A DNA stretch of 64,000 nt from Lytechinus pictus. Taxonomy: Eukaryota. The stretch lies in assembly GCF_037042905.1 (NCBI RefSeq), contig NC_087251.1:20338001-20402000 (forward strand), read 5' to 3'. Of this stretch, positions 1,472 through 37,692 are shown one piece after another. The notes below the pieces were generated by a model that was given only the letters and a program-made list of their open reading frames with translations, did not search any database and was not told where the DNA came from. The position numbers were made by a program, and so were the translations under genes. Every line of letters begins with the position of its first letter. The first letter of the stretch is position 1.

Positions 1472-1887
1472 ATATGTCTGTCTCTCTATCTATATATATG
1501 TCTGTCTATCTATCTGTCTATCTATCTATCTGTCTGTCTCTCTTTCTATCTATATGTTTATATATGTTTTATTAATATAACCACCAATCATCTCTCTATC
1601 TATCTATATATCTATATATCTATCAATCTATCTCTATATCTATAAGTCTGTCTCTCTATCTATCTATATGTCTGTCTCTCTATCTATATGTCTGTGTCTC
1701 TATCTATCTATATGTCTATGTTTTATTAATATAACCACCTATAATTGATCTCTCCATCCATCACTCCATCCATCTACTATAATTATCTTTCTTGTATGTA
1801 TCTGTTTGATTATGTAAATCTGTTTGTCTATCTATTTTTCAATCTAATATCTGTTTAAATATTTTTTTCCTGTTTATCTATCTATAC

Positions 1888-1930
1888 GACAGACCACCTA
1901 ATTCGTCCGCATGACGAATTAAAATCTAGT
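1888..1930 (+). other. 3' terminus (subTIR + hairpin + CTAG) of the rolling-circle element; also at 4732, 10110, 12120, 14751, 18053, 20103 and 22004
   Basis: GACAGACCACCTAATTCGTCCGCATGACGAATTAAAATCTAGT: an 8-bp stem just upstream of CTAG, as in Helitron/Helentron 3' ends. Confidence 0.85.
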
Positions 1931-1945
1931 TTTTATTTATTTTTA

Positions 1946-2133
1946 TTAGGTGGTCTGTCTATGACAGATCACCTCTTATATTTGTCCGAATTTTCTTTCT
2001 TTATTTATTATTTATTAGGTGGTCTGTCTATGACAGATCACCTCTTATGTTTGTCCGAATTTTCTTTCTTTATTTATTAGGTGGTCTGTCTATGACAGAT
2101 CACCTCTTATGTTTGTCCGAATTTTCTTTCTTT
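1946..2133 (+). repeat. Three stacked ~60-bp 5'-terminal modules of the HINE-like element
   Basis: TTAGGTGGTCTGTCTATGACAGATCACCTCTTATRTTTGTCCGAATTTTCTTTCTTTATT starts at 1946, 2015 and 2077. It contains the hairpin AGGTGGTCTGTC-TAT-GACAGATCACCT. Confidence 0.9.
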
Positions 2134-3984
2134 ATTTATTTTTATTTCTTATTTTTATTTCCTCCATTTCTTGTGGACAGCAAATCTCAGAAAGTTCATA
2201 TTCAATAATCATGAAAATATCACCACATATCAACATCAATAAGACCTCAATTCTGCAAGAATCTTAATGTCATGACGTCATCATGACGTCATCTAGACGC
2301 CATTTTGTAAAATCACATTATCAATCATATCTCCATTATCAATTATCAAAAATAAATCAAATTCACATGACATAAACTTCAGATCAAGGGTCATCAGGTC
2401 ATGTCATCAAAGGTCACCTGAAGGTCACGACGCGCGCGTACGCGCGCGTCAAAATTTTAAAATGCTAAAAATCACTTTTTGACCAAAACAGAGTACGTTT
2501 TAGGTCATTTTAAGCATTTCAAAAAATTGCGCGCGCAAACGTATGCGCGCGCGTTTCCGCGCGTAACGCCTTGAATGCAACTCAGAAACACCGTTTTTTT
2601 TATTTCATTGCATTGATCATATAATTTTGAGCAATTTGATACCTTGATCAACCTTCTACGACCATTAATAAGGAAATTAACACCCGTTAAAGTTTGCAGC
2701 ACGTGTGCGCGCGAGCTCTCACTATAGGCCATATATGGGCAAAAACATGCCTATAGAAAATCCGCTGTAGCTCTTCAGAACGCGTGGGGACCCCCAATTT
2801 TTTTTTCATATTTTGATAGAGTATGAACTAGAGATATAATTTCATGTCTCATTTGACCCTCAATTATATTATGACGTCATCAAAATGGCATCGGAAGTCA
2901 AAAAATCCATTTTGCCTATTATGACGTCATTATAATTATGCAAATCTTGCTCTAACTCCGTGAATATCGGTCTATTTTCACCCAATTTTTGATATGTTGT
3001 AGCTTAGTTCTTACTCTTTCTGAGTTATTGCCTTTATTTTTCATTTTGATAATTAGATCATCCTCAAAAATTGCAAATAATAATGGCATGTCATTTTTAC
3101 TCATTTTGCGTGTAATCTCTATGGGACATGACTTTTTCTCAAAACTAGATTCTACATTCTTCTATTTCGTAAGCCATATCTCCAATTTTTGTTGCTAGTT
3201 ATCCCTGAGCTTTTAGTATGTTGTAGCTGAGATTCTAAGCTTTCGGTTGCGTTTCCTTCATTTTCCGATCAGATGTCGGGATCATGCCCGTAATTCACTT
3301 GCAAGATTGGATTTGAGATTCTGGTGTTTTGCTTACGTGTTAAGTCTATGGGAAATATTCTAGCTCAATCGGTTAGGCGTCAGACTTACTTCTCATTCCA
3401 TCATGCAGGCAGGGGTTCGAGTCCGCGGGTGAACATGATTTTTTTTTTTTTTTTTTTTTTTTTAGCTATCTTGCCCACGATCAATTATAAGAATTCTAAC
3501 AAATAATAGCTAAAATATTGCAAAATAAAACAGATTATAATTACTTTTTTATATCATATCTATTTATCTGTCTGTCTATCTACCTACATGACATATCTAT
3601 CTCTCTGTCTAATATATATCTTTCTGTTTGAATACGTCCCTCTCTCTCTATCTATCCATATGTCTGTCTGTCTATCTACCTACATTGTATATCTATCTGT
3701 CTGTTTATCTCTCTCTCTCTCTCTCTGTCTAATATATATGTATCTATCTGTTTAGATATGTCTATCTATCTATCCATCCATCTGCCTGTCTCTATCTATC
3801 TATCTATCTATATATCTATCTATCTATCTGTCTGTCTGTCTCTCTATCTATCTATCTATCTGTCTATCTATCTATCTATCTATCTATATGTCTGTCTCTC
3901 TATTCATCTATATGTCTGTCTCTCTATCTATCTCTGTCTCGATCTCTATCAATCTATATGTCTGTCTCTGTATCTATCTATATG

Positions 3985-4021
<37 letters not shown>

Positions 4022-4774
4022 ATATCTATCTATATGTCTGTCTCTCTCTCTATCTATCTATATTTCTGTCTCTCTGTCTATCTATATGTTTGTCTATCTA
4101 TATGTCTGTCTATCTATCCATGAAGCTATCACGAGAAGGAGAACCATCTTCCAATTTCTCTCTTAATCCTTTGTTATCGCTTCCTTCGGGCGAAGGAACG
4201 ATATCTAACATCAATTGGCGAGCCGCCAGGCGAAAGTTAGAGCCCGCTTACATAACGCGATAGGACCACGCAGCATGAAGCTATTACGAGATAGCTCGTA
4301 ATAGCTTCATGATATGTCTGTCTCTCTATCTATATATATGTCTGTCTATCTATCTGTCTATCTATCTATCTGTCTGTCTCTCTTTCTATCTATATGTTTA
4401 TATATGTTTTATTAATATAACCACCAATCATCTCTCTATCTATCTATATATCTATATATCTATCAATCTATCTCTCTATCTATAAGTCTGTCTCTCTATC
4501 TATCTATATGTCTGTCTCTCTATCTATATGTCTGTCTCTCTATATCTATCTTTATATGTCTATGTTTTATTAATATAACCACCTATAATTTATCTCTCCA
4601 TCCATCACTCCATCCATCTAATATAATTATCTTTCTTGTATGTATCTGTTTGATTATGTAAATCTGTTTGTCTATCTATTTTTCAATCTAATATCTGTTT
4701 AAATATTTTTTTCCTGTTTATCTATCTATACGACAGACCACCTAATTCGTCCGCATGACGAATTAAAATCTAGT
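2077..4774 (+). mobile_element. Complete ~2.7 kb HINE-like copy (5' module, body, 3' hairpin/CTAG); a second complete copy lies at 7459-10152
   Basis: 5' subTIR at 2077 is contiguous with the body. 3' subTIR at 4732 and CTAG at 4770-4773. Confidence 0.8.
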
Positions 4775-6620
4775 TTTTATTTATTATTTTTATTTCCTCC
4801 ATTTCTTGTGGACAGCAAATCTCAGAAAGTTCATATTCAATAATCATCAAAATATCACCACATATCAACATCAATAAGACCTCAATTCTGCAAGAATCTT
4901 AATGTCATGACGTCATCATGACGTCATCTAGACGCCATTTTGTAAAATCACATTATCAATCATATCTCCATTATCAATTATCAAAAATAAATCAAATTCA
5001 CATGACATAAACTTCAGATCAAGGGTCATCAGGTCATGTCATCAAAGGTCACCTGAAGGTCACGACGCGCGCGTACGCGCGCGTCAAAATTTTAAAATGC
5101 TAAAAATCACTTTTTGACCAAAACAGAGTACGTTTTAGGTCATTTTAAGCATTTCAAAAAATTGCGCGCGCAAACGTATGCGCGCGCGTTTCCGCGCGTA
5201 AAGCCTTGAATGCAACTCAGAAACACCGTTTTTTTTATTTCATTGCATTGATCATATAATTTTGAGCAATTTGATACCTTGATCAACCTTCTACGACCAT
5301 TAATAAGGAAATTAACACCCGTTAAAGTTTGCAGCACGTGTGCGCGCGAGCTCTCACTATAGGCCATATATGGGCAAAAACATGCCTATAGAAAATCCGC
5401 TGTAGCTCTTCAGAACGCGTGGGGACCCCCAATTTTTTTTTCATATTTTGATAGAGTATGAACTAGAGATATAATTTCATGTCTCATTTGACCCTCAATT
5501 ATATTATGACGTCATCAAAATGGCGTCGGAAGTCAAAAAATCCATTTTGCCTATTATGACGTCATTATAATTATGCAAATCTTGCTCTAACTCCGTGAAT
5601 ATCGGTCTATTTTCACCCAATTTTTGATATGTTGTAGCTTAGTTCTTACTCTTTCTTAGTTATTGCCTTTATTTTTCATTTTGATAATTAGATCATCCTC
5701 AAAAATTGCAAATAATAATGGCATGTCATTTTTACTCATTTTGCGTGTAATCTCTATGGGACATGACTTTTTCTCAAAACTAGATTCTACATTCTTCTAT
5801 TTCGTAAGCCATATCTCCAATTTTTGTTGCTAGTTATCCCTGAGCTTTTAGTATGTTGTAGCTGAGATTCTAAGCTTTCGGTTGCGATTCCTTCATTTTC
5901 CGATCAGATGTCGGGATCATGCCCGTAATTCACTTGCAAGATTGGATTTGAGATTCTGGTGTTTTGCTTACGTGTTAAGTCTATGGGAAATATTCTAGCT
6001 CAATCGGTTAGGCGTCAGACTTACTTCTCATTCCATCATGCAGGCAGGGGTTCGAGTCCGCGGGTGAACATGATTTTTTTTTTTTTTTTTTTTTTTTTTA
6101 GCTATCTTGCCCACGATCAATTATAAGAATTCTAACAAATAATAGCTAAAATATTGCAAAATAAAACAGATTATAATTACTTTTTTATATCATATCTATT
6201 TATCTGTCTGTCTATCTACCTACATGACATATCTATCTCTCTGTCTAATATATATCTTTCTGTTTGAATACGTCCCTCTCTCTCTATCTATCCATATGTC
6301 TGTCTGTCTATCTACCTACATTGTATATCTATCTGTCTGTTTATCTCTCTCTCTCTCTCTCTGTCTAATATATATGTATCTATCTGTTTAGATATGTCTA
6401 TCTATCTATCCATCCATCTGCCTGTCTCTATCTATCTATCTATCTATATATCTATCTATCTATCTGTCTGTCTGTCTCTCTATCTATCTATCTATCTGTC
6501 TATCTATCTATCTATCTATCTATATGTCTGTCTCTCTATTCATCTATATGTCTGTCTCTCTATCTATCTCTGTCTCGATCTCTATCAATCTATATGTCTG
6601 TCTCTGTATCTATCTATATG

Positions 6621-6665
<45 letters not shown>

Positions 6666-7267
6666 ATATCTATCTATATGTCTGTCTCTCTATCTATCTA
6701 TATTTCTGTCTCTCTGTCTATCTATATGTTTGTCTATCTATATGTCTGTCTATCTATCCATGAAGCTATCACGAGAAGGAGAACCATCTTCCAATTTCTC
6801 TCTTAATCCTTTGTTATCGCTTCCTTCGGGCGAAGGAACGATATCTAACATCAATTGGCGAGCCGCCAGGCGAAAGTTAGAGCCCGCTTACATAACGCGA
6901 TAGGACCACGCAGCATGAAGCTATTACGAGATAGCTCGTAATAGCTTCATGATATGTCTGTCTCTCTATCTATATATATGTCTGTCTATCTATCTGTCTA
7001 TCTATCTATCTGTCTGTCTCTCTTTCTATCTATATGTTTATATATGTTTTATTAATATAACCACCAGTCATCTCTCTATCTATCTATATATCTATATATC
7101 TATCAATCTATCTCTCTATCTATAAGTCTGTCTCTCTATCTATCTATATGTCTGTCTCTCTATCTATATGTCTGTCTCTCTATATCTATCTTTATATGTC
7201 TATGTTTTATTAATATAACCACCTATAATTTATCTCTCCATCCATCACTCCATCCATCTAATATAAT

Positions 7268-7517
7268 TTAGGTGGTCTGTCTATGACAGATCACCTATTA
7301 TGTTTGTCCGAATTTTCTTTCTTTATTATTTATTATTTATTAGGTGGTCTGTCTATGACAGATCACCTCTTATGTTTGTCCGAATTTTCTTTCTTTATTA
7401 TTAGGTGGTCTGTCTATGACAGATCACCTTTTATGTTTGTCCGAATTTTCTTTCTTTATTAGGTGGTCTGTCTATGACAGATCACCTCTTATGTTTGTCC
7501 GAATTTTCTTTCTTTAT
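7268..7517 (+). repeat. Four stacked 5'-terminal modules of the HINE-like element
   Basis: The same module starts at 7268, 7340, 7401 and 7459. The preceding copy lacks its 3' terminus. Confidence 0.9.
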
Positions 7518-9374
7518 TATTTTTATTTCTTATTTTTATTTCCTCCATTTCTTGTGGACAGCAAATCTCAGAAAGTTCATATTCAATAATCATCAAAATA
7601 TCACCACATATCAACATCAATAAGACCTCAATTCTGCAAGAATCTTAATGTCATGACGTCATCATGACGTCATCTAGACGCCATTTTGTAAAATCACATT
7701 ATCAATCATATCTCCATTATCAATTATCAAAAATTAATCAAATTCACATGACATAAACTTCAGATCAAGGGTCATCAGGTCATGTCATCAAAGGTCACCT
7801 GAAGGTCACGACGCGCGCGTACGCGCGCGTCAAAATTTTTAAATGCTCAAAATCACTTTTTGACCAAAACAGAGTACGTTTCAGGTCATTTTAAGCATTT
7901 CAAAAAATTGCGCGCGCAAACGTATGCGCGCGCGTTTCCGCGCGTAACGCCTTGAATGCAACTCAGAAACACCGTTTTTTTTATTTCATTGCATTGATCA
8001 TATAATTTTGAGCAATTTGATACCTTGATCAACCTTCTACGACCATTAATAAGGAAATTAACACCCGTTAAAGTTTGCAGCACGTGTGCGCGCGAGCTCT
8101 CACTATAGGCCATATATGGGCAAAAACATGCCTATAGAAAATCCGCTGTAGCTCTTCAGAACGCATGGGGACCCCCAATTTTTTTTTCATATTTTGATAG
8201 AGTATGAACTAGAGATATAATTTCATGTCTCATTTGACCCTCAAGTATATTATGACGTCATCAAAATGGCGTCGGAATTCAAAAAATCCATTTTGCCTAT
8301 TATGACGTCATTATAATTATGCAAATCTTGCTCTAACTCCGTGAATATTGGTCAATTTTCACCCAATTTTTGATATGTTGTAGCTTAGTTCTTACTCTTC
8401 CTGAGTTATTGCCTTTATTTTTCATTTTGATAGACAAATCATCCTCAAAAATTGCAAATAATAATGGCATGTCATTTTTACTCATTTTGCGTGTAATCTC
8501 TATGGGACATGACTTTTTCTCAAAACTAGATTCTACATTCTTCTATTTCGTAAGCCATATCTCCAATTTTTGTTGCTAGTTATCCCTGAGCTTTTAGTAT
8601 GTTGTAGCTGAGATTCTAAGCTTTCGGTTGCGTCTCCTTCATTTTCCGATCAGATGTCGGGATCATGCCCGTAATTCACTTGCAAGATTGGATTTGAGAT
8701 TCTGGTGTTTTGCTTACGTGTTAAGTCTATGGGAAATATTCTAGCTCAATCGGTTAGGCGTCAGACTTACTTCTCATTCCATCATGCAGGCAGGGGTTCG
8801 AGTCCGCGGGTGAACATGATTTTTTTTTTTTTTTTTTTTTTTTTTAGCTATCTTGCCCACGATCAATTATAAGAATTCTAACAAATAATAGCTAAAATAT
8901 TGCAAAATAAAACAGATTATAATTACTTTTTTATATCATATCTATTTATCTGTCTGTCTATCTACCTACATGACATATCTATCTCTCTGTCTAATATATA
9001 TCTTTCTGTTTGAATACGTCCCTCTCTCTCTATCTATCCATATGTCTGTCTGTCTATCTACCTACATTGTATATCTATCTGTCTGTTTATCTCTCTCTCT
9101 CTCTCTCTGTCTAATATATATGTATCTATCTGTTTAGATATGTCTATCTATCTATCCATCCATCTGCCTGTCTCTATCTATCTATCTATCTATATATCTA
9201 TCTATCTATCTGTCTGTCTGTCTCTCTATCTATCTATCTATCTATCTATCTGTCTATCTATCTATCTATCTATCTATATGTCTGTCTCTCTATTCATCTA
9301 TATGTCTGTCTCTCTATCTATCTCTGTCTCGATCTCTATCAATCTATATGTCTGTCTCTGTATCTATCTATATG

Positions 9375-9415
<41 letters not shown>

Positions 9416-12012
9416 ATATCTATCTATATGTCTGTCTCTCTATCTATCTATATTTCTGTCTCTCTGTCTATCTATATGTTTGTCTATCTATATGTCTGTC
9501 TATCTATCCATGAAGCTATCACGAGAAGGAGAACCATCTTCCAATTTCTCTCTTAATCCTTTGTTATCGCTTCCTTCGGGCGAAGGAACGATATCTAACA
9601 TCAATTGGCGAGCCGCCAGGCGAAAGTTAGAGCCCGCTTACATAACGCGATAGGACCACGCAGCATGAAGCTATTACGAGATAGCTCGTAATAGCTTCAT
9701 GATATGTCTGTCTCTCTATCTATATATATGTCTGTCTATCTATCTGTCTATCTATCTATCTGTCTGTCTCTCTTTCTATCTATATGTTTATATATGTTTT
9801 ATTAATATAACCACCAATCATCTCTCTATCTATCTATATATCTATCAATCTATCTCTCTATCTATAAGTCTGTCTCTCTATCTATCTATATGTCTGTCTC
9901 TCTATCTATATGTCTGTCTCTCTATATCTATCTTTATATGTCTATGTTTTATTAATATAACCACCTATAATTTATCTCTCCATCCATCACTCCATCCATC
10001 TAATATAATTATCTTTCTTGTATGTATCTGTTTGATTATGTAAATATGTTTGTCTATTTTTCAATCTAATATCTGTTTAAATATTTTTTTCCTGTTTATC
10101 TATCTATACGACAGACCACCTAATTCGTCCGCATGACGAATTAAAATCTAGTTTATTATTATTTTTATTTCTTATTTTTATTTCCTCCATTTCTTGTGGA
10201 CAGCAAATCTCAGAAAGTTCATATTCAATAATCATCAAAATATCACCACATATCAACATCAATAAGACCTCAATTCTGCAAGAATCTTAATGTCATGACG
10301 TCATCATGACGTCATCTAGACGCCATTTTGTAAAATCACATTATCAATCATATCTCCATTATCAATTATCAAAAATAAATCAAATTCACATGACATAAAC
10401 TTCAGATCAAGGGTCATCAGGTCATGTCATCAAAGGTCACCTGAAGGTCACGACGCGCGCGTACGCGCGCGTCAAAATTTTAAAATGCTAAAAATCACTT
10501 TTTGACCAAAACAGAGTACGTTTTAGGTCATTTTAAGCATTTCAAAAAATTGCGCGCGCAAACGTATGCGCGCGCGTTTCCGCGCGTAAGGCCTCAATGC
10601 AACTCAGAAACACCGTTTTTTTTTATTTCATTGCATTGATCATATAATTTTGAGCAATTTGATACCTTGATCAACCTTCTACGACCATTAATAAGGAAAT
10701 TAACACCCGTTAAAGTTTGCAGCACGTGTGCGCGCGAGCTCTCACTATAGGCCATATATGGGCAAAAACATGCCTATAGAAAATCCGCTGTAGCTCTTCA
10801 GAACGCATGGGGACCCCCAATTTTTTTTTCATATTTTGATAGAGTATGAACTAGAGATATAATTTCATGTCTCATTTGACCCTCAATTATATTATGACGT
10901 CATCAAAATGGCGTCGGAATTCAAAAAATCCATTTTGCCTATTATGACGTCATTATAATTATGCAAATCTTGCTCTAACTCCGTGAATATTGGTCAATTT
11001 TCACCCAATTTTTGATATGTTGTAGCTTAGTTCTTACTCTTTCTGAGTTATTGCCTTTATTTTTCATTTTGATAGACAAATCAGCCTCAAAAATTGCAAA
11101 TAATAATGGCATGTCATTTTTACTCATTTTGCGTGTAATCTCTATGGGACATGACTTTTTCTCAAAACTAGATTCTACATTCTTCTATTTCGTAAGCCAT
11201 ATCTCCAATTTTTGTTGCTAGTTATCCCTGAGCTTTTAGTATGTTGTAGCTGAGATTCTAAGCTTTCGGTTGCGTTTCCTTCATTTTCCGATCAGATGTC
11301 GGGATCATGCCCGTAATTCACTTGCAAGATTGGATTTGAGATTCTGGTGTTTTGCTTACGTGTTAAGTCTATGGGAAATATTCTAGCTCAATCGGTTAGG
11401 CGTCAGACTTACTTCTCATTCCATCATGCAGGCAGGGGTTCGAGTCCGCGGGTGAACATGATTTTTTTTTTTTTTTTTTTTTTTTTTAGCTATCTTGCCC
11501 ACGATCAATTATAAGAATTCTAACAAATAATAGCTAAAATATTGCAAAATAAAACAGATTATAATTACTTTTTTATATCATATCTATTTATCTGTCTGTC
11601 TATCTACCTACATGACATATCTATCTCTCTGTCTAATATATATCTTTCTGTTTGAATACGTCCCTCTCTCTCTATCTATCCATATGTCTGTCTGTCTATC
11701 TACCTACATTGTATATCTATCTGTCTGTTTATCTCTCTCTCTCTCTCTCTGTCTAATATATATGTATCTATCTGTTTAGATATGTCTATCTATCTCTCCA
11801 TCCATCTGCCTGTCTCTATCTATCTATCTATCTATCTATATATCTATTTATCTATCTGTCTGTCTGTCTCTCTATCTATCTATCTATCTGTCTATCTATC
11901 TATCTATCTATCTATATGTCTGTCTCTCTATTCATCTATATGTCTGTCTCTCTATCTATCTCTGTCTCGATCTCTATCAATCTATATGTCTGTCTCTGTA
12001 TCTATCTATATG

Positions 12013-12053
<41 letters not shown>

Positions 12054-13455
12054 ATATCTATCTATATGACCATCATGATAATTATGATAATATTCATGAT
12101 TATGATTGACAAGTTGACTGACAGACCACCTAATTCGTCCCAATGACGAATTAAATATCTAGTTATTTCTTATTTTTATTTCCTCCATTTCTTGTGGACA
12201 GCAAATCTCAGAAAGTTCATATTCAATAATCATCAAAATATCACCACATATCAACATCAATAAGACCTCAATTCTGCAAGAATCTTAATGTCATGACGTC
12301 ATCATGACGTCATCTAGACGCCATTTTGTAAAATCACATTATCAATCATATCTCCATTATCAATTATCAAAAATAAATCAAATTCACATGACATAAACTT
12401 CAGATCAAGGGTCATCAGGTCATGTCATCAAAGGTCACCTGAAGGTCACGACGCGCGCGTACGCGCGCGTCAAAATTTTAAAATGCTAAAAATCACTTTT
12501 TGACCAAAACAGAGTACGTTTTAGGTCATTTTAAGCATTTCAAAAAATTGCGCGCGCAAACGTATGCGCGCGCGTTTCCGCGCGTAACGCCTTGAATGCA
12601 ACTCAGAAACACCGTTTTTTTTATTTCATTGCATTGATCATATAATTTTGAGCAATTCGATACCTTGATCAACCTTCTACGACCATTAATAAGGAAATTA
12701 ACACCCGTTAAAGTTTGCAGCACGTGTGCGCGCGAGCTCTCACTATAGGCCATATATGGGCAAAAACATGCCTATAGAAAATCCGCTGTAGCTCTTCAGA
12801 ACGCATGGGGACCCCCAATTTTTTTTTCATATTTTGATAGAGTATGAACTAGAGATATAATTTCATGTCTCATTTGACCCTCAATTATATTATGACGTCA
12901 TCAAAATGGCGTCGGAATTCAAAAAATCCATTTTGCCTATTATGACGTCATTATAATTATGCAAATCTTGCTCTAACTCCGTGAATATTGGTCAATTTTC
13001 ACCCAATTTTTGATATGTTGTAGCTTAGTTCTTACTCTTTCTAAGTTATTGCCTTTATTTTTCATTTTGATAGACAAATCATCCTCAAAAATTGCAAATA
13101 ATAATGGCATGTCATTTTTACTCATTTTGCGTGTAATCTCTATGGGACATGACTTTTTCTCAAAACTAGATTCTACATTCTTCTATTTCGTAAGCCATAT
13201 CTCCAATTTTTGTTGCTAGTTATCCCTGAGCTTTTAGTATGTTGTAGCTGAGATTCTAAGCTTTCGGTTGCGTTTCCTTCATTTTCCGATCAGATGTCGG
13301 GATCATGCCCGTAATTCACTTGCAAGATTGGATTTGAGATTCTGGTGTTTTGCTTACGTGTTAAGTCTATGGGAAATATTCTAGCTCAATCGGTTAGGCG
13401 TCAGACTTACTTCTCATTCCATCATGCAGGCAGGGGTTCGAGTCCGCGGGTGAAC

Positions 13456-13486
<31 letters not shown>

Positions 13487-14011
13487 AGCTATCTTGCCCA
13501 CGATCAATTATAAGAATTCTAACAAATAATAGCTAAAATATTGCAAAATAAAACAGATTATAATTACTTTTTTATATCATATCTATTTATCTGTCTGTCT
13601 ATCTACCTACATGACATATCTATCTCTCTGTCTAATATATATCTTTCTGTTTGAATACGTCCCTCTCTCTCTATCTATCCATATGTCTGTCTGTCTATCT
13701 ACCTATATTGTATATCTATCTGTCTGTTTATCTCTCTCTCTCTCTCTCTGTCTAATATATATGTATCTATCTGTTTAGATATGTCTATCTATCTATCCAT
13801 CCATCTGCCTGTCTCTATCTATCTATCTATCTATCTATATATCTATCTATCTATCTGTCTGTCTGTCTCTCTATCTATCTATCTATCTGTCTATCTATCT
13901 ATCTATCTATCTATATGTCTGTCTCTCTATTCATCTATATGTCTGTCTCTCTATCTATCTCTGTCTCGATCTCTATCAATCTATATGTCTGTCTCTGTAT
14001 CTATCTATATG

Positions 14012-14044
<33 letters not shown>

Positions 14045-16125
14045 ATATCTATCTATATGTCTGTCTCTCTATCTATCTATATTTCTGTCTCTCTGTCTAT
14101 CTATATGTTTGTCTATCTATATGTCTGTCTATCTATCCATGAAGCTATCACGAGAAGGAGAACCATCTTCCAATTTCTCTCTTAATCCTTTGTTATCGCT
14201 TCCTTCGGGCGAAGGAACGATATCTAACATCAATTGGCGAGCCGCCAGGCGAAAGTTAGAGCCCGCTTACATAACGCGATAGGACCACGCAGCATGAAGC
14301 TATTACGAGATAGCTCGTAATAGCTTCATGATATGTCTGTCTCTCTATCTATATATATGTCTGTCTATCTATCTGTCTATCTATCTATCTGTCTGTCTCT
14401 CTTTCTATCTATATGTTTATATATGTTTTATTAATATAACCACCAATCATCTCTCTATCTATCTATATATCTATATATCTATCAATCTATCTCTCTATCT
14501 ATAAGTCTGTCTCTCTATCTATCTATATGTCTGTCTCTCTATCTATATGTCTGTCTCTCTATATCTATCTATATATGTCTATGTTTTATTAATATAACCA
14601 CCTATAATTTATCTCTCCATCCATCACTCCATCCATCTAATATAATTATCTTTCTTGTATGTATCTGTTTGATTATGTAAATCTGTTTGTCTATCTATTT
14701 TTCAATCTAATATCTGTTTAAATATTTTTTTCCTGTTTATCTATCTATACGACAGACCACCTAATTCGTCCGCATGACGAATTAAAATCTAGTTTATTTC
14801 TTATTTTTATTTCCTCCATTTCTTGTGGACAGCAAATCTCAGAAAGTTCATATTCAATAATCATCAAAATATCACCACATATCAACATCAATAAGACCTC
14901 AATTCTGCAAGAATCTTAATGTCATGACGTCATCATGACGTCATCTAGACGCCATTTTGTAAAATCACATTATCAATCATATCTCCATTATCAATTATCA
15001 AAAATAAATCAAATTCACATGACATAAACTTCAGATCAAGGGTCATCAGGTCATGTCATCAAAGGTCACCTGAAGGTCACGACGCGCGCGTACGCGCGCG
15101 TCAAAATTTTAAAATGCTAAAAATCACTTTTTGACCAAAACAGAGTACGTTTTAGGTCATTTTAAGCATTTCAAAAAATTGCGCGCGCAAACGTATGCGC
15201 GCGCGTTTCCGCGCGTAACGCCTCAATGCAACTCAGAAACACCGTTTTTTTTTATTTCATTGCATTGATCATATAATTTTGAGCAATTTGATACCTTGAT
15301 CAACCTTCTACGACCATTAATAAGGAAATTAACACCCGTTAAAGTTTGCAGCACGTGTGCGCGCGAGCTCTCACTATAGGCCATATATGGGCAAAAACAT
15401 GCCTATAGAAAATCCGCTGTAGCTCTTCAGAACGCATGGGGACCCCCAATTTTTTTTTCATATTTTGATAGAGTATGAACTAGAGATATAATTTCATGTC
15501 TCATTTGACCCTCAATTATATTATGACGTCATCAAAATGGCGTCGGAATTCAAAAAATCCATTTTGCCTATTATGACGTCATTATAATTATGCAAATCTT
15601 GCTCTAACTCCGTGAATATTGGTCAATTTTCACCCAATTTTTGATATGTTGTAGCTTAGTTCTTACTCTTTCTGAATTATTGCCTTTATTTTTCATTTTG
15701 ATAGAAAAATCATCCTCAAAAATTGCAAATAATAATGGCATGTCATTTTTACTCATTTTGCGTGTAATCTCTATGGGACATTACTTTTTCTCAAAACTAG
15801 ATTCTACATTCTTCTATTTCGTAAGCCATATCTCCAATTTTTGTTGCTAGTTATCCCTGAGCTTTTAGTATGTTGTAGCTGAGATTCTAAGCTTTCGGTT
15901 GCGTATCCTTCATTTTCCGATCAGATGTCGGGATCATGCCCGTAATTCACTTGCAAGATTGGATTTGAGATTCTGGTGTTTTGCTTACGTGTTAAGTCTA
16001 TGGGAAATATTCTAGCTCAATCGGTTAGGCGTCAGACTTACTTCTCATTCCATCATGCAGGCAGGGGTTCGAGTCCGCGGGTGAACATGATTTTTTTTTT
16101 TTTTTTTTTTTTTTTAGCTATCTTG

Positions 16126-16786
16126 TACGAAAGACCATTAGTGCCACGGAGAAAAAAAAACACTATTTCTACTAATCTGTTATAACAGATTACGGTATTT
16201 CTACTAATCTGTTTAAACAGATTATAATCTGTTATAACAGATTACGGTATTTCTACTAATCTGTTATAACAGATTACGGTATTTCTACTAATCTGTTATA
16301 ACAGATTATAATCTGTTTAAACAGATTAGTAGAAATACCGTAATCTGTTATAACAGATTAGTAGAAATACCGTAATCTGTTATAACAGATTATAATCTGA
16401 TTATAATCTGTTTAAACAGATTAGTAGAAATACCGTAATCTGTTATAACAGATTAGTAGAAATACCGTAATCTGTTATAACAGATTATAATCTGTTTAAA
16501 CAGATTAGTAGAAATACCGTAATCTGTTATAACAGATTAGTAGAAATACCGTAATCTGTTATAACAGATTATAATCTGTTTAAACAGATTAGTAGAAATA
16601 CTGTAATCTGTTATAACAGATTAGTAGAAATACCGTAATCTGTTATAACAGATTAGTAGAAATACCGTAATCTGTTATAACAGATTATAATCTGTTTAAA
16701 CAGATTAGTAGAAATACCGTAATCTGTTATAACAGATTAGTAGAAATAGTGTTTTTTTTTCTCCGTGGCACTAATGGTCTTTCGTA
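16126..16786. mobile_element. 661-bp foldback non-autonomous DNA transposon, IS3EU-like (TAC..GTA termini, 6-bp TSD)
   Basis: TIR TACGAAAGACCATTAGTGCCACGGAG / CTCCGTGGCACTAATGGTCTTTCGTA. TSD ATCTTG at 16120-16125 and 16787-16792. The empty site is seen in the eight sibling units. The interior is a ~32-bp minisatellite that flips orientation near 16315. Confidence 0.85.
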
Positions 16787-17179
16787 ATCTTGCCCACGAT
16801 CAATTATAAGAATTCTAACAAATAATAGCTAAAATATTGCAAAATAAAACAGATTATAATTACTTTTTTATATCATATCTATTTATCTGTCTGTCTATCT
16901 ACCTACATGACATATCTATCTCTCTGTCTAATATATATCTTTCTGTTTCAATACGTCCCTCTCTCTCTATCTATCCATATGTCTGTCTGTCTATCTACCT
17001 ACATTGTATATCTATCTGTCTGTTTATCTCTCTCTCTCTCTCTGTCTAATATATATGTATCTATCTGTTTAGATATGTCTATCTATCTATCCATCCATCT
17101 GCCTGTCTCTATCTATCTATCTATCTATGTATCTATCTATCTATCTGTCTGTCTGTCTCTCTATCTATCTATCTATCTG

Positions 17180-17216
<37 letters not shown>

Positions 17217-17313
17217 ATGTCTGTCTCTCTATTCATCTATATGTCTGTCTCTCTATCTATCTCTGTCTCGATCTCTATCAATCTATATGTCTGTCTCTGT
17301 ATCTATCTATATG

Positions 17314-17346
<33 letters not shown>

Positions 17347-20300
17347 ATATCTATCTATATGTCTGTCTCTCTATCTATCTATATTTCTGTCTCTCTGTCT
17401 ATCTATATGTTTGTCTATCTATATGTCTGTCTATATATCCATGAAGCTATCACGAGAAGGAGAACCATCTTCCAATTTCTCTCTTAATCCTTTGTTATCG
17501 CTTCCTTCGGGCGAAGGAACGATATCTAACATCAATTGGCGAGCCGCCAGGCGAAAGTTAGAGCCCGCTTACATAACGCGATAGGACCACGCAGCATGAA
17601 GCTATTACGAGATAGCTCGTAATAGCTTCATGATATGTCTGTCTCTCTATCTATAAATATGTCTGTCTATCTATCTGTCTATCTATCTATCTGTCTGTCT
17701 CTCTTTCTATCTATATGTTTATATATGTTTTATTAATATAACCACCAATCATCTCTCTATCTATCTATATATCTATATATCTATCAATCTATCTCTCTAT
17801 CTCTAAGTCTGTCTCTCTATCTATCTATATGTCTGTCTCTCTATCTATATGTCTGTCTCTCTATATCTATCTATATATGTCTATGTTTTATTAATATAAC
17901 CACCTATAATTTATCTCTCCATCCATCACTCCATCCATCTAATATAATTATCTTTCTTGTATGTATCTGTTTGATTATGTAAATCTGTTTGTCTATCTAT
18001 TTTTCAATCTAATATCTGTTTAAATATTTTTTTCCTGTTTATCTATCTATACGACAGACCACCTAATTCGTCCGCATGACGAATTAAAATCTAGTTTTTA
18101 TTTCTTATTTTTATTTCCTCCATTTCTTGTGGACAGCAAATCTCAGAAAGTTCATATTCAATAATCATCAAAATATCAGCACATATTAACATCAATAAGA
18201 CCTCAATTCTGCAAGAATCTTAATGTCATGACGTCATCATGACGTCATCTAGACGCCATTTTGTAAAATCACATTATCAATCATATCTCCATTATCAATT
18301 ATCAAAAATAAATCAAATTCACATGACATAAACTTCAGATCAAGGGTCATCAGGTCATGTCATCAAAGGTCACCTGAAGGTCACGACGCGCGCGTACGCG
18401 CGCGTCAAAATTTTAAAATGCTAAAAATCACTTTTTGACCAAAACAGAGTACGTTTTAGGTCATTTTAAGCATTTCAAAAAATTGCGCGCGCAAACGTAT
18501 GCGCGCGCGTTTCCGCGCGTAACGCCTTGAATGCAACTCAGAAACACCGTTTTTTTTATTTCATTGCATTGATCATATAATTTTGAGCAATTTGATACCT
18601 TGATCAACCTTCTACGACCATTAATAAGGAAATTAACACCCGTTAAAGTTTGCAGCACGTGTGCGCGCGAGCTCTCACTATAGGCCATATATGGGCAAAA
18701 ACATGCCTATAGAAAATCCGCTGTAGCTCTTCAGAACGCGTGGGGACCCCCAATTTTTTTTTCATATTTTGATAGAGTATGAACTAGAGATATAATTTCA
18801 TGTCTCATTTGACCCTCAAATATATTATGACGTCATCAAAATGGCGTCGGAATTCAAAAAATCCATTTTGCCTATTATGACGTCATTATAATTATGCAAA
18901 TCTTGCTCTAACTCCGTGAATATTGGTCAATTTTCACCCAATTTTTGATATGTTGTAGCTTAGTTCTTACTCTTTCTGAGTTATTGCCTTTATTTTTCAT
19001 TTTGATAGACAAATCATCCTCAAAAATTGCAAATAATAATGGCATGTCATTTTTACTCATTTTGCGTGTAATCTCTATGGGACATGACTTTTTCTCAAAA
19101 CTAGATTCTACATTCTTCTATTTCGTAAGCCATATCTCCAATTTTTGTTGCTAGTTATCCCTGAGCTTTTAGTATGTTGTAGCTGAGATTCTAAGCTTTC
19201 GGTTGCGTTTCCTTCATTTTCCGATCAGATGTCGAGATCATGCCCGTAATTCACTTGCAAGATTGGATTTGAGATTCTGGTGTTTTGCTTACGTGTTAAG
19301 TCTATGGCAAATATTCTAGCTCAATCGGTTAGGCGTCAGACTTACTTCTCATTCCATCATGCAGGCAGGGGTTCGAGTCCGCGGGTGAACATGATTTTTT
19401 TTTTTTTTTTTTTTTTTTAGCTATCTTGCCCACGATCAATTATAAGAATTCTAACAAATAATAGCTAAAATATTGCAAAATAAAACAGATTATAATTACT
19501 TTTTTATATCATATCTATTTATCTGTCTGTCTATCTACCTACATGACATATCTATCTCTCTGTCTAATATATATCTTTCTGTTTGAATACGTCCCTCTCT
19601 CTCTATCTATCCATATGTCTGTCTGTCTATCTACCTACATTGTATATCTATCTGTCTGTTTATCTCTCTCTCTCTCTCTCTGTCTAATATATATGTATCT
19701 ATCTGTTTAGATATGTCTATCTATCTATCCATCCATCTGCCTGTCTCTATCTATCTATCTATCTATATATCTATCTATCTATCTGTCTGTCTGTCTCTCT
19801 ATCTATCTATCTATCTGTCTATCTATATATCTATCAATCTATCTCTCTATCTATAAGTCTGTCTCTCTATCTATCTATATGTCTGTCTCTCTATCTATAT
19901 GTCTGTCTCTCTATATCTATCTTTATATGTCTATGTTTTATTAATATAACCACCTATAATTTATCTCTCCATCCATCACTCCATCCATCTAATATAATTA
20001 TCTTTCTTGTATGTATCTGTTTGATTATGTAAATCTGTTTGTCTATCTATTTTTCAATCTAATATCTGTTTAAATATTTTTTTCCTGTTTATCTATCTAT
20101 ACGACAGACCACCTAATTCGTCCGCATGACGAATTAAAATCTAGTTTATTTTTATTTCTTATTTTTATTTCCTCCATTTCTTGTGGACAGCAAATCTCAG
20201 AAAGTTGATATTCAATAATCATCAAAATATCACCACATATCAACATCAATAAGACCTCAATTCTGCAAGAATCTTAATGTCATGACGTCATCATGACGTC

Positions 20301-22619
20301 ATCTAGACGCCATTTTGTAAAATCACATTATCAATCATATCTCCATTATCAATTATCAAAAATCAATCAAATTCACATGACATAAACTTCAGATCAAGGG
20401 TCATCAGGTCATGTCATCAAAGGTCACCTGAAGGTCACGACGCGCGCGTACGCGCGCGTCAAAATTTTAAAATGCTCAAAATCACTTTTTGACCAAAACA
20501 GAGTACGTTTTAGGTCATTTTAAGCATTTTAAAAAATTGCGCGCGCAAACGTATGCGCGCGCGTTTCCGCGCGTAACGCCTCAATGCAACTCAGAAACAC
20601 CGTTTTTTTTTATTTCATCGCATTGATCATATAATTTTGAGCAATTTGATACCTTGATCAACCTTCTACGACCATTAATAAGGAAATTAACACCCGTTAA
20701 AGTTTGCAGCACGTGTGCGCGCGAGCTCTCACTATAGGCCATATATGGGCAAAAACATGCCTATAGAAAATCCGCTGTAGCTCTTCAGAACGCATGGGGA
20801 CCCCCAATTTTTTTTTCATATTTTGATAGAGTATGAACTAGAGATATAATTTCATGTCTCATTTGACCCTCAATTATATTATGACGTCATCAAAATGGCG
20901 TCGGAAGTCAAAAAATCCATTTTGCCTATTATGACGTCATTATAATTATGCAAATCTTGCTCTAACTCCGTGAATATCGGTCAATTTTCACCCAATTTTT
21001 GATATGTTGTAGCTTAGTTCTTACTCTTTCTGAGTTATTGCCTTTATTTTTCATTTTGATAGACAAATCATCCTCAAAAATTGCAAATAATAATGGCATG
21101 TCATTTTTACTCATTTTGCGTGTAATCTCTATGGGACATGACTTTTTCTCAAAACTAGATTCTACATTCTTCTATTTCGTAAGCCATATCTCCAATTTTT
21201 GTCGCTAGTTATCCCTGAGCTTTTAGTATGGTGTAGCTGAGATTCTAAGCTTTCGGTTGCGTTTCCTTCATTTTCCGATCAGATGTCGGGATCATGCCCG
21301 TAATTCACTTGCAAGATTGGATTTGAGATTCTGGTGTTTTGCTTACGTGTTAAGTCTATGGGAAATATTCTAGCTCAATCGGTTAGGCGTCAGACTTACT
21401 TCTCATTCCATCATGCAGGCAGGGGTTCGAGTCCGCGGGTGAACATGATTTTTTTTTTTTTTTTTTTTTTTTTAGCTATCTTGCCCACGATCAATTATAA
21501 GAATTCTAACAAATAATAGCTAAAATATTGCAAAATAAAACAGATTATAATTACTTTTTTATATCATATCTATTTATCTGTCTGTCTATCTACCTACATG
21601 ACATATCTATCTCTCTTCCAAGTGTATGCATTCTGATCATGATTCCTCTTTCATCCTTCGGTCCACCTCATGTATTTTTACATGACTATAACCCGTCTCT
21701 CTCTCTCCTTCTCTATATCTATATTTTCATTAGATTTCATTATGATCATGATTTTGATCATAATCATTTCTCAGTATTTTGTTCATCAGTTAAGTTATCA
21801 CTTCAGTTCAGGTCACAGTTCAATCTATCAGTTCATCAGTAATTCATTCATCAGTTTAGCTCATCAATTCAGTTCATTTCACATCAGTTCAATCTATCAG
21901 TTCATCAGTACTTCATTCATCAATTCATATCTTAATACATCATTTTACATTAACATTATATTGGATCATTGAATTGAAAATGAGCATGATCATAAAAATT
22001 GAAGACAGACCACCTAATTCGTCCTCATGACGAATTAAATTTCTAGTTATTATTAAAATACATAGAGGGTTGGGGGCTCAGTTAAGTAAGTTTTTTTTTT
22101 TAGATATAAAAGTATCATTTTAAGGAATTTCATTCCGTCCTTATTTTCTTCAGTTTTTGGTAAATTATATATGTATTTTTTTTTTGCATATCCTTGTGGA
22201 TATAAAATGAAGATTTGTAATTTTTTGTATTTATCTGGAGTTTATGTAATTCATTTGAATGAAATTCTTAATAAAAACATGTTGAAAAAAAAGAAAAAAG
22301 TGTGTTCGTGTGAGGGTGCGTGTGTGTGTCTGAAAGAACAATGGAAAACTCAATTGTGTCTCCCACCTTTGAGGAGAGATTTCAGCACCCCCACTGAAAA
22401 AATCGTTCCCAGGGCCCTGACCAAGCAATTCGGCTGCGATTGTCTCTGACATTTAGGCCTAGATTCTGAGAGATTGAAATAGAAAATGATTAGGACATGC
22501 CTCCCCTTCCCCTCCCCCTTAAAGGCTATCAAAATGACCCCGCCCCTCAAATCTACCGCGGATCGAACTCCACTACAAGAGCAATCAACCAGGATTCACT
22601 TCCTCTACTAATCTGCTCA

Positions 22620-27405: not shown

Positions 27406-27995
27406 CACAGTGACAAGATATTATAAATAATCGATGCATTCATGATTATGGTAGTCATTGAAACGCGCAGGTAAAAAAGCATCATTATGATAATACTTGA
27501 GGAAATTGTTATATGATAAAAACTTGATAATGACGCAACCACAATCATGAATATGCATCATAATAATCATACGCGTAACTCAGAAAGGAGGAGGCTGCAG
27601 GACGTAGTAACTTTGTTTAACACCTTTTCTCGGTCCAAGCTTTTCCTATATATATATATATATATATATATAAAAACATCCATATTGATTTTCGTTTTTA
27701 TTTTTATCATTATTGTTTTCAGGTTTCATATAGTCAGATGAAATAGCTTTCGAATCGGACGTTATGGAAATGACCTCACAATTATACAGTCATCTTGTAG
27801 CATGAAGACATATATGCCTACTAAACAATTTGTTACTGTCACAGTGGTGATTATTCCTCGCATCGATCATTCGTTAGCCAACATTAAGTGGGTTTTTTTC
27901 AGATACAAACGTTCATTTTAATCTTTCTCTTTATTGTCTACAGATATCTGAGGTACGTAATGACATTCTCTCAGCAACGTGATATATCTGGACGA

Positions 27996-29141
27996 ATGGC
28001 CCAACTTTCTAGTGCCAACACGGGATTTGCCCTTCATATCTATCAAACCCTTCAAGATGAGCGGAGTGGTAGAAACTTGTTCTTCTCTCCCCTGAGCATA
28101 TCCACAGCCCTTGCAATGACGCAGCTTGGAGCCAGAGGTGATACAGCAACTCAGATCGCGGACGTCTTTCGTTTCAACCAGGTAGACCAACTGCAACTCC
28201 ATGGAACTTTCAAAGAGCTTAACAACTTGCTGTACCAGAAACAATCTGGTTACAAACTTCATGCAGCCAACAAGCTGTATGGCAAATCAGGCTTCAACTT
28301 CGTTCAGTCATTTGTGGAAGGAACTGCTTCATATTACGGAGCAGCCATAGAAGCTGTGAAAAACTTTGCAGATCCAACTGCTGCTAAATTGATCAATGAT
28401 TGGGTGTCAAAGCAAACTGCTGGTAAGATCACAAACCTTATTGCCCCTGGTATCTTGAATGATCTTACACGCCTTGTCCTCGTAAATGCCATCTATTTTA
28501 AGGGGAACTGGGCATCAAAATTTCGTGCCGAAAATACGACACAAGATGTATTCAAAGTTCTAGATGAACGAAGTAAAGTTCCTGTGAGTCTTATGATTCA
28601 AAAGGGTAAATTTTCCCTTGCCATTGACGAAGCAAATGACTGTCTTGTTCTTGAAATGCCCTATCAAGGCAACGATCTCAGTCTGCTGATCGTCCTTCCA
28701 AACAAAGATCACGGCCTCGTGAATCTTGAGTCGAAACTCTCTGCGGACATCCTGAAATCCTGGGACTTAAGACTCAAATCAAGACAGGTGAACATACTTT
28801 TACCAAAGTTCAAACTAGAAGCAGAATTCCAACTGAAGGAAGTTTTGAAACAAATGGGAATGCCGGATGCTTTTGATGAGAATATGGCCAACTTCGAAGG
28901 AATTTCAGGTGATAGAGAATTGTACATCTCTGCAGTCATCCACAAGGCGTTTGTCGATGTCAATGAAGAAGGGAGCGAGGCAGCTGCTGCAACAGCCGTT
29001 GTGATGATGAAAAGATGCGCTATGCCACGAGAACCAGAGAAGCCAATATTGTTTCGAGCAGACCATCCATTCCTCTTCATGATTCGTCACCGCTCCACTA
29101 AATATCTTCTTTTCATGGGAAGAATGATGGATCCCTCCTAA
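27996..29141 (+). CDS. Intracellular clade-B-like (leukocyte elastase inhibitor / serpin B6-like) serine protease inhibitor, 381 aa, intronless CDS; alternative in-frame ATG at 27960
   Basis: Serpin motifs NLFFSPLSISTALAM, INDWVSKQTAGKI, LVLVNAIYFKGNW, LPKFKLE, hinge EEGSEAAAAT and signature FRADHPFLFMI. No signal peptide from M37. The track's GTG start at 27888 lies upstream of a polypyrimidine tract and CAG acceptor (27943), so it is probably intronic. Confidence 0.95.
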   Translation: MAQLSSANTGFALHIYQTLQDERSGRNLFFSPLSISTALAMTQLGARGDTATQIADVFRFNQVDQLQLHGTFKELNNLLYQKQSGYKLHAANKLYGKSGFNFVQSFVEGTASYYGAAIEAVKNFADPTAAKLINDWVSKQTAGKITNLIAPGILNDLTRLVLVNAIYFKGNWASKFRAENTTQDVFKVLDERSKVPVSLMIQKGKFSLAIDEANDCLVLEMPYQGNDLSLLIVLPNKDHGLVNLESKLSADILKSWDLRLKSRQVNILLPKFKLEAEFQLKEVLKQMGMPDAFDENMANFEGISGDRELYISAVIHKAFVDVNEEGSEAAAATAVVMMKRCAMPREPEKPILFRADHPFLFMIRHRSTKYLLFMGRMMDPS

Positions 29142-34962: not shown

Positions 34963-35895
34963 CCCTTATTAAACTAACCCCCCTCGACAAATTTCGCCGC
35001 TACGCCGCCGCGCAAGTTTTTTTGACCGCGCTGCTCGCTGACTTTTTACCTTCAAGTCCGGCGCATATTTTGAGACACCCGGGTACGCGGTTCCCAAATT
35101 ACGCAATGTTTTGTAAGCGCATGTCGGTCCCCAAATTGCTCAAAAACGTGATTACGTGTACATGCAAAGTCAATGCAAATTGTGTTTTTCAACCAAAAAT
35201 CATAAATGTATGATTATTTTTTACTTTTGTTGGTTAAGATGGATTTATTTTATGTTATTTCCCGGGGGGGGGGGAGGGGGGCTCTCAGTATATAATGCAT
35301 ATTACTGGGTATGACCCGTTCCAAGGACCCCAGTTTTCACAAACATTTGTAGTTCCGAAGCCCGTTCCGAGGACCCTCCTTTTAACAATAAGCCCGCTCC
35401 AGAGCCCCCGTTTTTTGTCTCGCCCGCGGCACATACCTACCACTTTTTGGGTCGACTACCCCCCCCCGGTGTCATTTATAATCGCAAAAGGGTCCCCGAC
35501 AAAGTTAATCGAATAAACAATAAAAAGAAAGGTTTGAAAATAACCCCAAAGAAATTACATAAGAATAAAAAAATAAAAAACCAATAAGATAGATAAGAAA
35601 CTAATCATTTTTCGACAATTTTTTTGTAGATTTTTTGTTAGAAATGTGAAAATCTATATGTTCAGCAGATATTATCATTCTACTAGATATATAAATTGAG
35701 TTAAAGGCAAACACATACACAAAAAACAAAAATTAGGGCAAATTTCACACGCTTATTTGCATATCTAGTTAAAAATAAAATCTAAGCAATTATTTTTTTG
35801 AAAATTTTACTATACATTCTTGTATTTTATATCCGGCTATACGCGCGTGCAAATTTTCGTGCAATCAACGGCCGTATAGCCCAGTTAAGATAGGG
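34963..35895. mobile_element. piggyBac-like non-autonomous element containing a CCCGG-ended MITE at ~35261-35470
   Basis: ATAA-CCCTTATTAAACT start and AGTTAAGATAGGG-TTAA end. Similar to 29986-32544. Confidence 0.65.
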
Positions 35896-37649: not shown

Positions 37650-37692
37650 CAACAACAACAACAACTACTACTACTACGTACAACTACTACTA

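Follow-up and report, generated by a model that had tools for sequence, protein, structure and literature searches.

Stacked 5′ modules in a Helentron-type array of Lytechinus pictus probably reflect repeated insertion into an AT-rich linker

Introduction

Target choice and the origin of multiple 5′ ends and satellite-like arrays in Helentron/Helitron2 elements are known mostly by inference. In the available text on FoHeli, a Helitron2 of Fusarium oxysporum (Chellapan et al. 2016, PMC5148889), elements carry asymmetric inverted repeats, a hairpin at each end and short repeated 5′ termini of 31–85 nt, and their multiple 5′ ends are attributed, as a proposal, to self-insertion, after which transposition would start at the outer 5′ end and stop at the first 3′ end. 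For a three-copy tandem in Metarhizium, that text leaves undecided whether double insertion into the 5′ end or rolling-circle replication was responsible. The Lytechinus array considered here resembles FoHeli in its termini (58–72 nt) and in the explanation offered; however, FoHeli copies are dispersed and have several 5′ ends per one 3′ end, whereas the Lytechinus array lies in an animal-type genome and has retained its displaced bodies and 3′ ends, nested up to four deep, with hits clustered in one conserved linker.

Much of the anatomy is that of HINE/DINE-1 elements as described in the accessible part of Thomas et al. 2014 (PMC4067079): subTIRs, an overlapping 5′ inverted repeat, a 3′ stem-loop, an internal microsatellite, no evident coding capacity, T-rich targets and a variable T number at the ends. 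In contrast to those elements, the Lytechinus copies have CTAG ends and an A before the terminal TT at 7/8 left junctions, and nested stacks are not described in that part of the source. A directly repeated 5′ terminus is also found in an animal HLE2, HelenXT233 of Xenopus tropicalis (HELIANO, PMC11417382), although its two termini are non-identical and lie in one element; the text available gives neither a run of displaced bodies nor a mechanism.

Other routes lead to comparable arrays. Tandem TE dimers, in the portion of McGurk and Barbash 2018 (PMC5932611) available, likewise illustrate how site preference turns a TE into a satellite-like array, but double insertion there depends on the host target being duplicated and yields units arranged head to tail, whereas here the target lies inside the element and the copies are nested. 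Truncated plant Helitrons (Xiong et al. 2016, as cited in the accessible text of the review PMC12628747) form satellite-like arrays by rolling-circle copying, in which numerous 5′ ends go with a single 3′ end, as opposed to a nested array; an earlier note on this locus had taken rolling-circle arrays to be regular 5′–body–3′ repeats, a premise that was too strong in view of the plant arrays. For Helraiser, the part of PMC4778049 available reports no local hopping. No balanced nest like the Lytechinus one appears in the available text of the ToxB preprint, PMC12001565 or PMC7492417, and in the literature searched (mostly outside subscription papers and supplements, which may hold an earlier balanced nest) only PMC5148889, as far as its text was accessible, brings Helitrons, self-insertion and nesting together. 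The idea of self-insertion is thus already in print for fungal Helitron2, and the Lytechinus locus adds an unusually deep nest. It retains both halves of the proposed nesting intermediates and is therefore a structure of the type predicted by the 2016 self-insertion model, which can be counted genome-wide.

Results and Discussion

The window, meaning the whole 64,000 nt stretch analysed, is NC_087251.1 (GCF_037042905.1, Lytechinus pictus) 20,338,001–20,402,000. Positions are window positions, all parts lie on the + strand, and all evidence for the nest comes from this single locus, which comprises the following features:

1–1929, +: upstream copy (y), incomplete because the window starts inside it; its 3′ terminus is 1888–1929; the array runs on past the window edge
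1930–1945, +: 16 nt T-rich spacer between the 3′ end and the first 5′ module
1946–2160, +: stack 1, modules a (1946), b (2015) and c (2077); left linker halves of 13 and 6 nt; intact 28 nt linker at 2133–2160
2161–4773, +: body with its own 3′ end (subTIR, 9 bp stem-loop, CTAG); poly-T of about 25 and TCTA microsatellites inside
4796–7267, +: body interrupted by stack 2, cut 146 nt short of its own 3′ end
7268–7541, +: stack 2, modules d (7268), e (7340), f (7401) and g (7459); left halves of 16, 5 and 2 nt; intact 27 nt linker at 7515–7541
7542–10151, +: body with its own 3′ end; the complete 2.7 kb element is 7459–10151
10184–12162, +: chimera of a body that breaks off at about 12068 and a sister-subfamily 3′ end (12069–12162), with a partial linker directly after
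12182–14792, +: body with its own 3′ end
14813–18094, +: body with its own 3′ end and a MITE inside (16126–16786)
18117–20144, +: body that keeps its own 3′ end and has lost about 580 bp internally, between microsatellite blocks
20171–22046, +: last body, which breaks off at about 21616 and continues as a sister-subfamily 3′ part; non-array flank from 22047

The array spans about 20 kb and holds eight non-coding element copies, damaged or intact. After 1930 there are seven 5′ modules (3 + 4), each of 56 nt from TTAGG, eight bodies and seven CTAG ends, which close every listed body but the interrupted one; an extra CTAG at 1929 ends the truncated upstream copy. Our recount agrees with the order given before (three 5′ modules, body–3′, a body with no 3′ end, four 5′ modules, six body–3′ units). 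The equality of seven 5′ and seven 3′ ends holds as a count, but it masks the missing tail of body 4796 and one body that has no 5′ module inside the window.

By its sequence, the array unit is a non-coding, 2.7 kb element of HINE/HLE2-type anatomy (non-autonomous Helentron/Helitron2). Its subTIR is a perfect 14 bp repeat, identical in a solo relative, with the 3′ copy starting 42 nt before the end (1888–1929); such repeats are expected to be at least 11 bp long, with the 3′ copy about 38–60 bp from the end. Each module contains a 12 bp hairpin (−9.7 kcal mol−1) that overlaps the subTIR, as in DINE-1, and the 3′ stem-loop, expected 8–35 bp from the end, has a 9 bp stem (−7.2 kcal mol−1) ending 8–9 nt before it, a placement that is the same in all three 3′-end types. 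TCTA arrays form the internal microsatellite. By frame inspection alone, the stop-free frames of at least 110 aa in the array overlap microsatellite blocks or the foreign 3′ part, which indicates no coding capacity, and no Helitron domain was found in the eight longer window frames scanned. A box-A/box-B-like stretch was also considered as a tRNA or Rfam RNA and rejected (no ARAGORN gene; no Rfam match at gathering score).

TT follows 8/8 3′ ends in the window, in runs of 2–5 T, and TG follows that of the solo relative. An A precedes the terminal TT in 6/7 window modules and in the solo relative, a pattern from which insertion at A^T and at T^T are indistinguishable in filled sites. Three of five rejoined linkers are 7–8 nt too long, as a target duplication might make them, a figure drawn from filled sites; the unit 1946–20144 is flanked by a 10 nt direct repeat, in low-complexity sequence.

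The earlier observation that the T-rich linker is different at each junction was borne out. The six right linker halves all differ (0/15 pairs identical, mean edit distance 5.8), as do the five left halves (0/10), and the distal 19 nt of the linker, adjoining the body, are identical in 7/8 copies. Five of the six internal 5′ junctions lie within the first 16 nt of the linker; the binomial chance of this is 3e-6 for any TT, 0.002 for TATT and 0.018 for the strictest AT-rich motif tried, all of these motifs having been picked after the sites were seen. The 26 nt poly-T of the bodies carries an insertion in 0/9 copies, and A/T runs of 3–6 in the bodies changed length in 0/488 copy-runs, so plain slippage after duplication fails to explain the junctions. 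The spacer at 1930–1945 is probably linker-derived: its final 12 nt are identical to those with which the intact linker of module c begins. Stack 2 interrupts a body outside any linker, 146 nt before the end of that body, and the break falls exactly at a 5′ terminus.

The locus is not a clean last-in-first-out nest. The earlier note had proposed that left and right halves be rejoined in that order; against all 720 pairings this did no better than shuffling (summed edit distance 25 versus a shuffled mean of 30.7; p 0.20, or 0.14 with free T number). Only 1/5 such pairs came within one edit of the intact linker, and two pairs outside the order rejoin perfectly. The interrupted body 4796 is never completed, its 146 nt tail being absent from the array after the nest. 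Taking 22046 as the end of module a was tried and gave a chance-level pairing (p 0.48–0.54). Modules d and f, variant at position 30, are the last-in-first-out partners of two bodies that have a linked haplotype at 2572–2593 in common, a weak, post hoc match (1 in 21 by count) in which the two position-30 variants are different letters.

The bodies differ at 5–19 of 1278 aligned columns, a repeat far beyond chance. Each has 2–6 private changes and the shared alleles fall into conflicting groups, thus indicating that they are not one clonal concatemer. Neighbours resemble each other more closely than expected (Mantel rho 0.40, p 0.03; p 0.07–0.09 when either of the first two bodies is omitted), and 13/55 informative site pairs are incompatible, from which we infer that local exchange may have altered unit numbers. 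Body 14813 alone has the MITE (661 bp, 183 bp perfect inverted ends, 6 bp target duplication), and the part of body 18117 beyond the poly-T is 727 nt long, versus about 1310 in full copies. The 3′ ends at 12162 and 22046 are foreign to the subfamily, being preceded by about 50 and 385 nt of other sequence and differing in loop and tail; over its last 61 nt, the 22046 end matches the solo relative (L001) at 93% identity. Directly after the mid-array sister-subfamily end at 12162 come an exact linker suffix and a body, an arrangement that copying of a neighbouring unit would not give.

Variation confined to the junctions, the in-register foreign 3′ end in mid-array and the five of six linker hits together make linker insertion the best single explanation. 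We consider it rather probable that family members inserted repeatedly, in separate events, into the AT-rich linker just behind the 5′ module of resident copies, that the array grew in this way, and that it was edited later. The earlier reading of nested self-targeting into the linker is retained to that extent, with its strict order given up and with a missing tail and an unmatched body to be accommodated. A RepHel transposase acting in trans would perform each insertion. The resident 56 nt 5′ module, with a linker stub, would then end up on the left of the new copy and everything from the linker remainder through the body to the 3′ end on its right, and the newcomer's own linker would be available to the next insertion. 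In the most economical history, copy d would have landed in the tail of copy b, and the composite from the 5′ end of b to the 3′ end of d would then have moved as one unit (outer 5′ start, first 3′ stop); alternatively, the duplicated tail may have collapsed. Either event would explain the missing tail of body 4796. Copies c, e, f and g would afterwards have nested in linkers, the eighth body could be the partner of a 5′ module upstream of the window, and recombination or conversion would since have mixed the bodies.

The local alternative is that one or two real T-rich insertions were followed by microhomology slippage or unequal exchange between the linker and T-rich flanks, which duplicated the 5′ module and, separately, the linker–body–3′ unit. 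The likeness of neighbouring bodies (p 0.03; only 5/1278 columns between the first two), their mosaic nature, the failed rejoining test and the presence of one linker start common to the modules of stack 1 and another to those of stack 2 would all fit, and the 12 nt shared by flank and linker leaves room for microhomology duplication at stack 1. Duplication reproduces each junction as it was, yet all 11 halves are different, and this beside a distal linker that is equally simple but constant; the duplication account does not explain why 5′ and 3′ ends are nearly equal in number, leaves the foreign mid-array 3′ end unaccounted for, and would act at stack 2 on a flank without the needed homology, where 2–3 edits are required to account for any junction. 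We regard this account as rather unlikely.

Composite or aberrant rolling-circle products, that is, multi-5′ composites from elsewhere together with circles lacking a 5′ module, inserted as concatemers, would make nesting in place unnecessary. Within the accessible texts, Helitron2 copies with several 5′ ends move as single units (PMC5148889), Xenopus harbours an HLE2 with two left termini (PMC11417382) and truncated Helitrons form concatemers in plants (via PMC12628747), and one of four sequencing runs has a putative multi-copy joint that links body position 3369 to a point immediately preceding a 5′ module. However, a single concatemer starts with identical units and junctions at a regular period, whereas here no right-half pair is identical, the 3′ ends are of three kinds and junctions and haplotypes vary per unit; multi-5′ composites would, moreover, yield surplus 5′ ends and not surplus bodies. 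Such an origin seems improbable. That the assembly collapsed or shuffled near-identical repeats is very improbable: the window does contain a 100% identical 3651 bp tandem duplication elsewhere (35799–43096), and no array-spanning read or contig was seen among the run contigs compared (four runs, 1740–3430), but each unit has private changes, distinct junctions or a private MITE or deletion, and no two are identical.

Linker insertion could extend further, to a linker that serves as a built-in landing pad. The transposase would be steered to A-TT sites 57–72 nt inside a resident 5′ end, and each insertion would supply a new pad, perhaps lengthened by a 7–10 nt duplication, so that kilobase-period satellites would arise autocatalytically by nesting. 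On this reading, the poly-T that is never hit implies that targeting is not to T-richness as such. We hold the extension only tentatively and think it doubtful; if true, it would be a different route from either the insertion of concatemers or double insertion at a host target. Linker targeting itself, if true, offers a testable, self-reinforcing route by which a dispersed transposon becomes a tandem array, and a site at which a selfish element does no harm; if false, the locus is an ordinary repeat pile-up in AT-rich DNA.

The solo relative, a sister element with 66% body identity, shares the T-rich linker and carries a single 5′ module and a single 3′ end. A scan of assembled genomes found one contig, by two patterns other than the exact 5′ motif, which had no match in the genome contigs scanned; the pattern scans gave none in viral or metagenome contigs. 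The assembly with the matching contig held no second true copy, its three matches being two from the same element and one with a mismatch. Part of the unit is present, as Logan contigs, in 18 of the 20 sequencing runs listed. Contigs of four of these 18 runs were compared over 1740–3430, with 2119–2162 left out as repeat and the 3′–linker–body junction thus uncovered; given that gap, it is uninformative that none of the 15 joints listed, out of 48, links a 3′ end to a linker or straight to a 5′ start. As weak hints rather than support, four contigs of one run exit a 3′ end into a consensus resembling the body start (agreement 0.6), and 3/4 runs have a second 3′ subTIR within 43 nt of the 3′ end. 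The alleles at 2968 and 2973 that are common to copies y, c and b are absent or nearly so from the contigs of the four runs, which drop rare variants; this hints at a local lineage.

Structure of the array and its element

Landmark mapping showed that the window opens with 22 kb of arrayed copies of a 2.7-kb element, and the array continues past the window start. The order of 5' modules, bodies and CTAG 3' termini (ends) claimed in the earlier note was borne out:

1929, + strand: 3' end (upstream copy y)
1946, 2015, 2077, + strand: three 5' modules (a, b, c; stack 1)
2161-4773, + strand: body with end
4796-7267, + strand: body without end
7268, 7340, 7401, 7459, + strand: four 5' modules (d, e, f, g; stack 2)
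10151, 12162, 14792, 18094, 20144, 22046, + strand: ends of six body-end units

The window thus holds eight bodies versus seven modules, and any two bodies differ at 5-19 positions (mean 13; first 1278 aligned columns). Stack 2 starts precisely at the 5' terminus, inside a body, and the array lacks the 146-nt tail of body 4796. A poly-T of ~26 nt is free of interruption by family members in 9/9 copies. Part of the unit is present in 18 of the 20 listed sequencing runs.

The complete unit (7459-10151) carries a perfect 14-bp subterminal inverted repeat (subTIR), a 12-bp 5' hairpin overlapping it and, on the 3' side, a 9-bp stem-loop and the CTAG end; it contains TCTA microsatellites and no evident gene. 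This arrangement matches HINE/DINE-1 and HLE2 anatomy as given in PMC4067079 and PMC11417382, respectively. Termini and anatomy have the structure expected of a HINE, which makes the array element a candidate HINE. Just before the poly-T of each body (window ~3358-3430), and also in a solo relative described below (~2878-2935 of contig L001), lies a tRNA box A/box B-like stretch; it gave no ARAGORN or Rfam match and may be a captured SINE head.

A scan of genome_contigs revealed a solo relative at L001:1630-3043, on a eukaryote-like contig filed under a bacterial MAG. This relative is 66% identical to the array element over 1414 columns, with a single 5' module, a single 3' end, an identical subTIR and a homologous T-rich linker between module and body. 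Module and linker are therefore normal element parts, and the only solo copy found (n=1) has just one module; further pattern scans of viral, metagenome and genome contigs yielded no additional copy. L001 (CBDFIJ010000003.1, 28 kb) looks like animal host DNA bearing a complete sister HINE, and its place in the bacterial record is probably contamination. The end at 22046 shares 93% identity with the last 61 nt of the solo relative, showing that it belongs to a sister subfamily. Nor is the end at 12162 one of the array subfamily's own; after it come an exact suffix of the linker and then a body.

Public contigs from four runs were compared over window 1740-3430 on either side of the linker (2119-2162), with 15 of 48 joints listed. 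In agreement with the foreign ends, they have many different sequences upstream of the same 3' subTIR (8, 5 and 36 contigs in 3/4 runs, with an agreement of 0.46-0.59). In contigs of three runs (X15, X16, X2) matching window 1886-1931, a 3' end is followed by a second 3' subTIR within 34-43 nt, a weak hint that 3' ends are stacked at other loci of the family.

Junctions and proposed history

The claim that the linker differs at every junction held, as no two left halves (0/10 pairs) or right halves (0/15) are identical. Left halves, adjoining the module, measure 13, 6, 16, 5 and 2 nt and all five finish in A, while the six right halves, adjoining the body, measure 22, 32, 19, 20, 22 and 26 nt and all begin with TT; 3/5 and 4/6 are an exact prefix and suffix, respectively, of the intact linker. 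The body-adjacent 19 nt of the linker are identical in 7/8 copies, and length changes in the bodies affect 0/488 copy-runs of 3-6 A or T and 3/16 of 8-9. Of the six internal 5' junctions, five fall in the linker; the chance probability ranges from 3e-6 to 0.018 with the choice of target motif, motifs being picked post hoc. Together with the foreign end at 12162 and what follows it, the precise start of stack 2 and the uninterrupted poly-T, the junctions provide evidence of formation one by one.

Last-in-first-out (LIFO) rejoining of the halves, expected of a nest, was not borne out: the summed edit distance was 25 against a mean of 30.7 (720 pairings, p 0.20), or 14 against 20.8 with free T number (p 0.14). 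Only the pair of b is near intact; three exceed the linker length by 7-8 nt and one falls short by 3 nt, and two non-LIFO pairs rejoin perfectly. This outcome does not support the nest claim, and the test has low power in such simple sequence. The missing tail of body 4796 and the surplus of bodies over modules also speak against a clean nest, as do 13/55 incompatible pairs of informative sites. Neighbouring bodies are somewhat more similar (rho 0.40, p 0.03; p 0.07-0.09 once either of the first two bodies is dropped). At 2968 and 2973, the alleles carried by y, c and b are absent or nearly absent in the contigs of the four runs, a hint of local descent, albeit one tempered by the loss of rare variants from contigs and by the chance that the runs come from other species.

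We consider nested linker insertions with later editing the most likely history, and a reasonably probable one. Both stacks and the body run would derive from separate insertions into the linker, with d inserted in the tail of b. The own end of b may have been lost by collapse of the duplicated tail or by transposition that ran from the 5' end of b and stopped at the first 3' end, the course that Fig. 7 of PMC5148889 draws for an outer 5' end. The partner of the eighth body would be a module lying 5' of the window, a placement consistent with the linker-like spacer at 1930-1945. Chimeras with sister-subfamily ends make up two of the copies, one copy acquired a MITE and another lost ~580 bp, and exchange between copies would account for the allele mixing. 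The two modules with a position-30 change pair, in LIFO order, with two bodies that have a three-site haplotype in common, which is weakly, and post hoc, consistent with this history. Three linked changes (2572-2593 homologous sites) are common to bodies 10184, 14813 and 20171, every second of the last six units; two of these three have foreign 3' ends.

Local duplication is an unlikely alternative for the array. The flank 5' of stack 1 has 12 nt in common with the linker, which would allow microhomology duplication of that stack; the stack 2 flank, needing 2-3 edits, does not allow it. Insertion of a ready-made composite or concatemer appears improbable, and an assembly error very improbable. 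A bolder idea, which we hold to be less likely than not, is that the linker serves as a landing pad guided by the hairpin and renewed with each insertion, so that satellites arise through nesting.

In PMC5148889, Helitron2 has repeated short 5' termini (31-85 nt) attributed to self-insertion, and the array would work like that Fusarium model. Other sources record two left termini in an HLE2 of an animal (PMC11417382) and, as known satellite routes, double insertion leading to arrays (PMC5932611) and truncated Helitron arrays (review PMC12628747). Among openly accessible main texts, we found no report of near-balanced stacks with displaced bodies kept and insertions limited to a conserved linker. 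The feature described in the earlier note is real and correctly described; its interpretation is partly supported, by the junctions and not by LIFO pairing, and partly anticipated by published self-insertion yielding multiple 5' termini.

Other elements in the window

The MITE (16126-16786), a 661-bp foldback element that occurs once within the window, has perfect inverted ends of 183 bp; it contains 20/32-bp palindromic repeats and is flanked by a target duplication of 6 bp. A 3651-bp tandem duplication with 100% identity (35799-43096) is either very recent or an assembly artefact. A stop-free, apparently intronless frame of 417 aa (27888-29141, + strand) encodes a full serpin domain (Pfam PF00079, E 7e-123). 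A broken LINE (52191-55611, + strand) comprises an ORF1-like frame followed by fragments of an endonuclease and a reverse transcriptase, which lie in different frames. A diverged inverted repeat pair (44054-44594 / 46374-46925, 75%) and two related 42-bp tandem arrays (46972-47114 / 49242-49552) are probably other transposon remnants.
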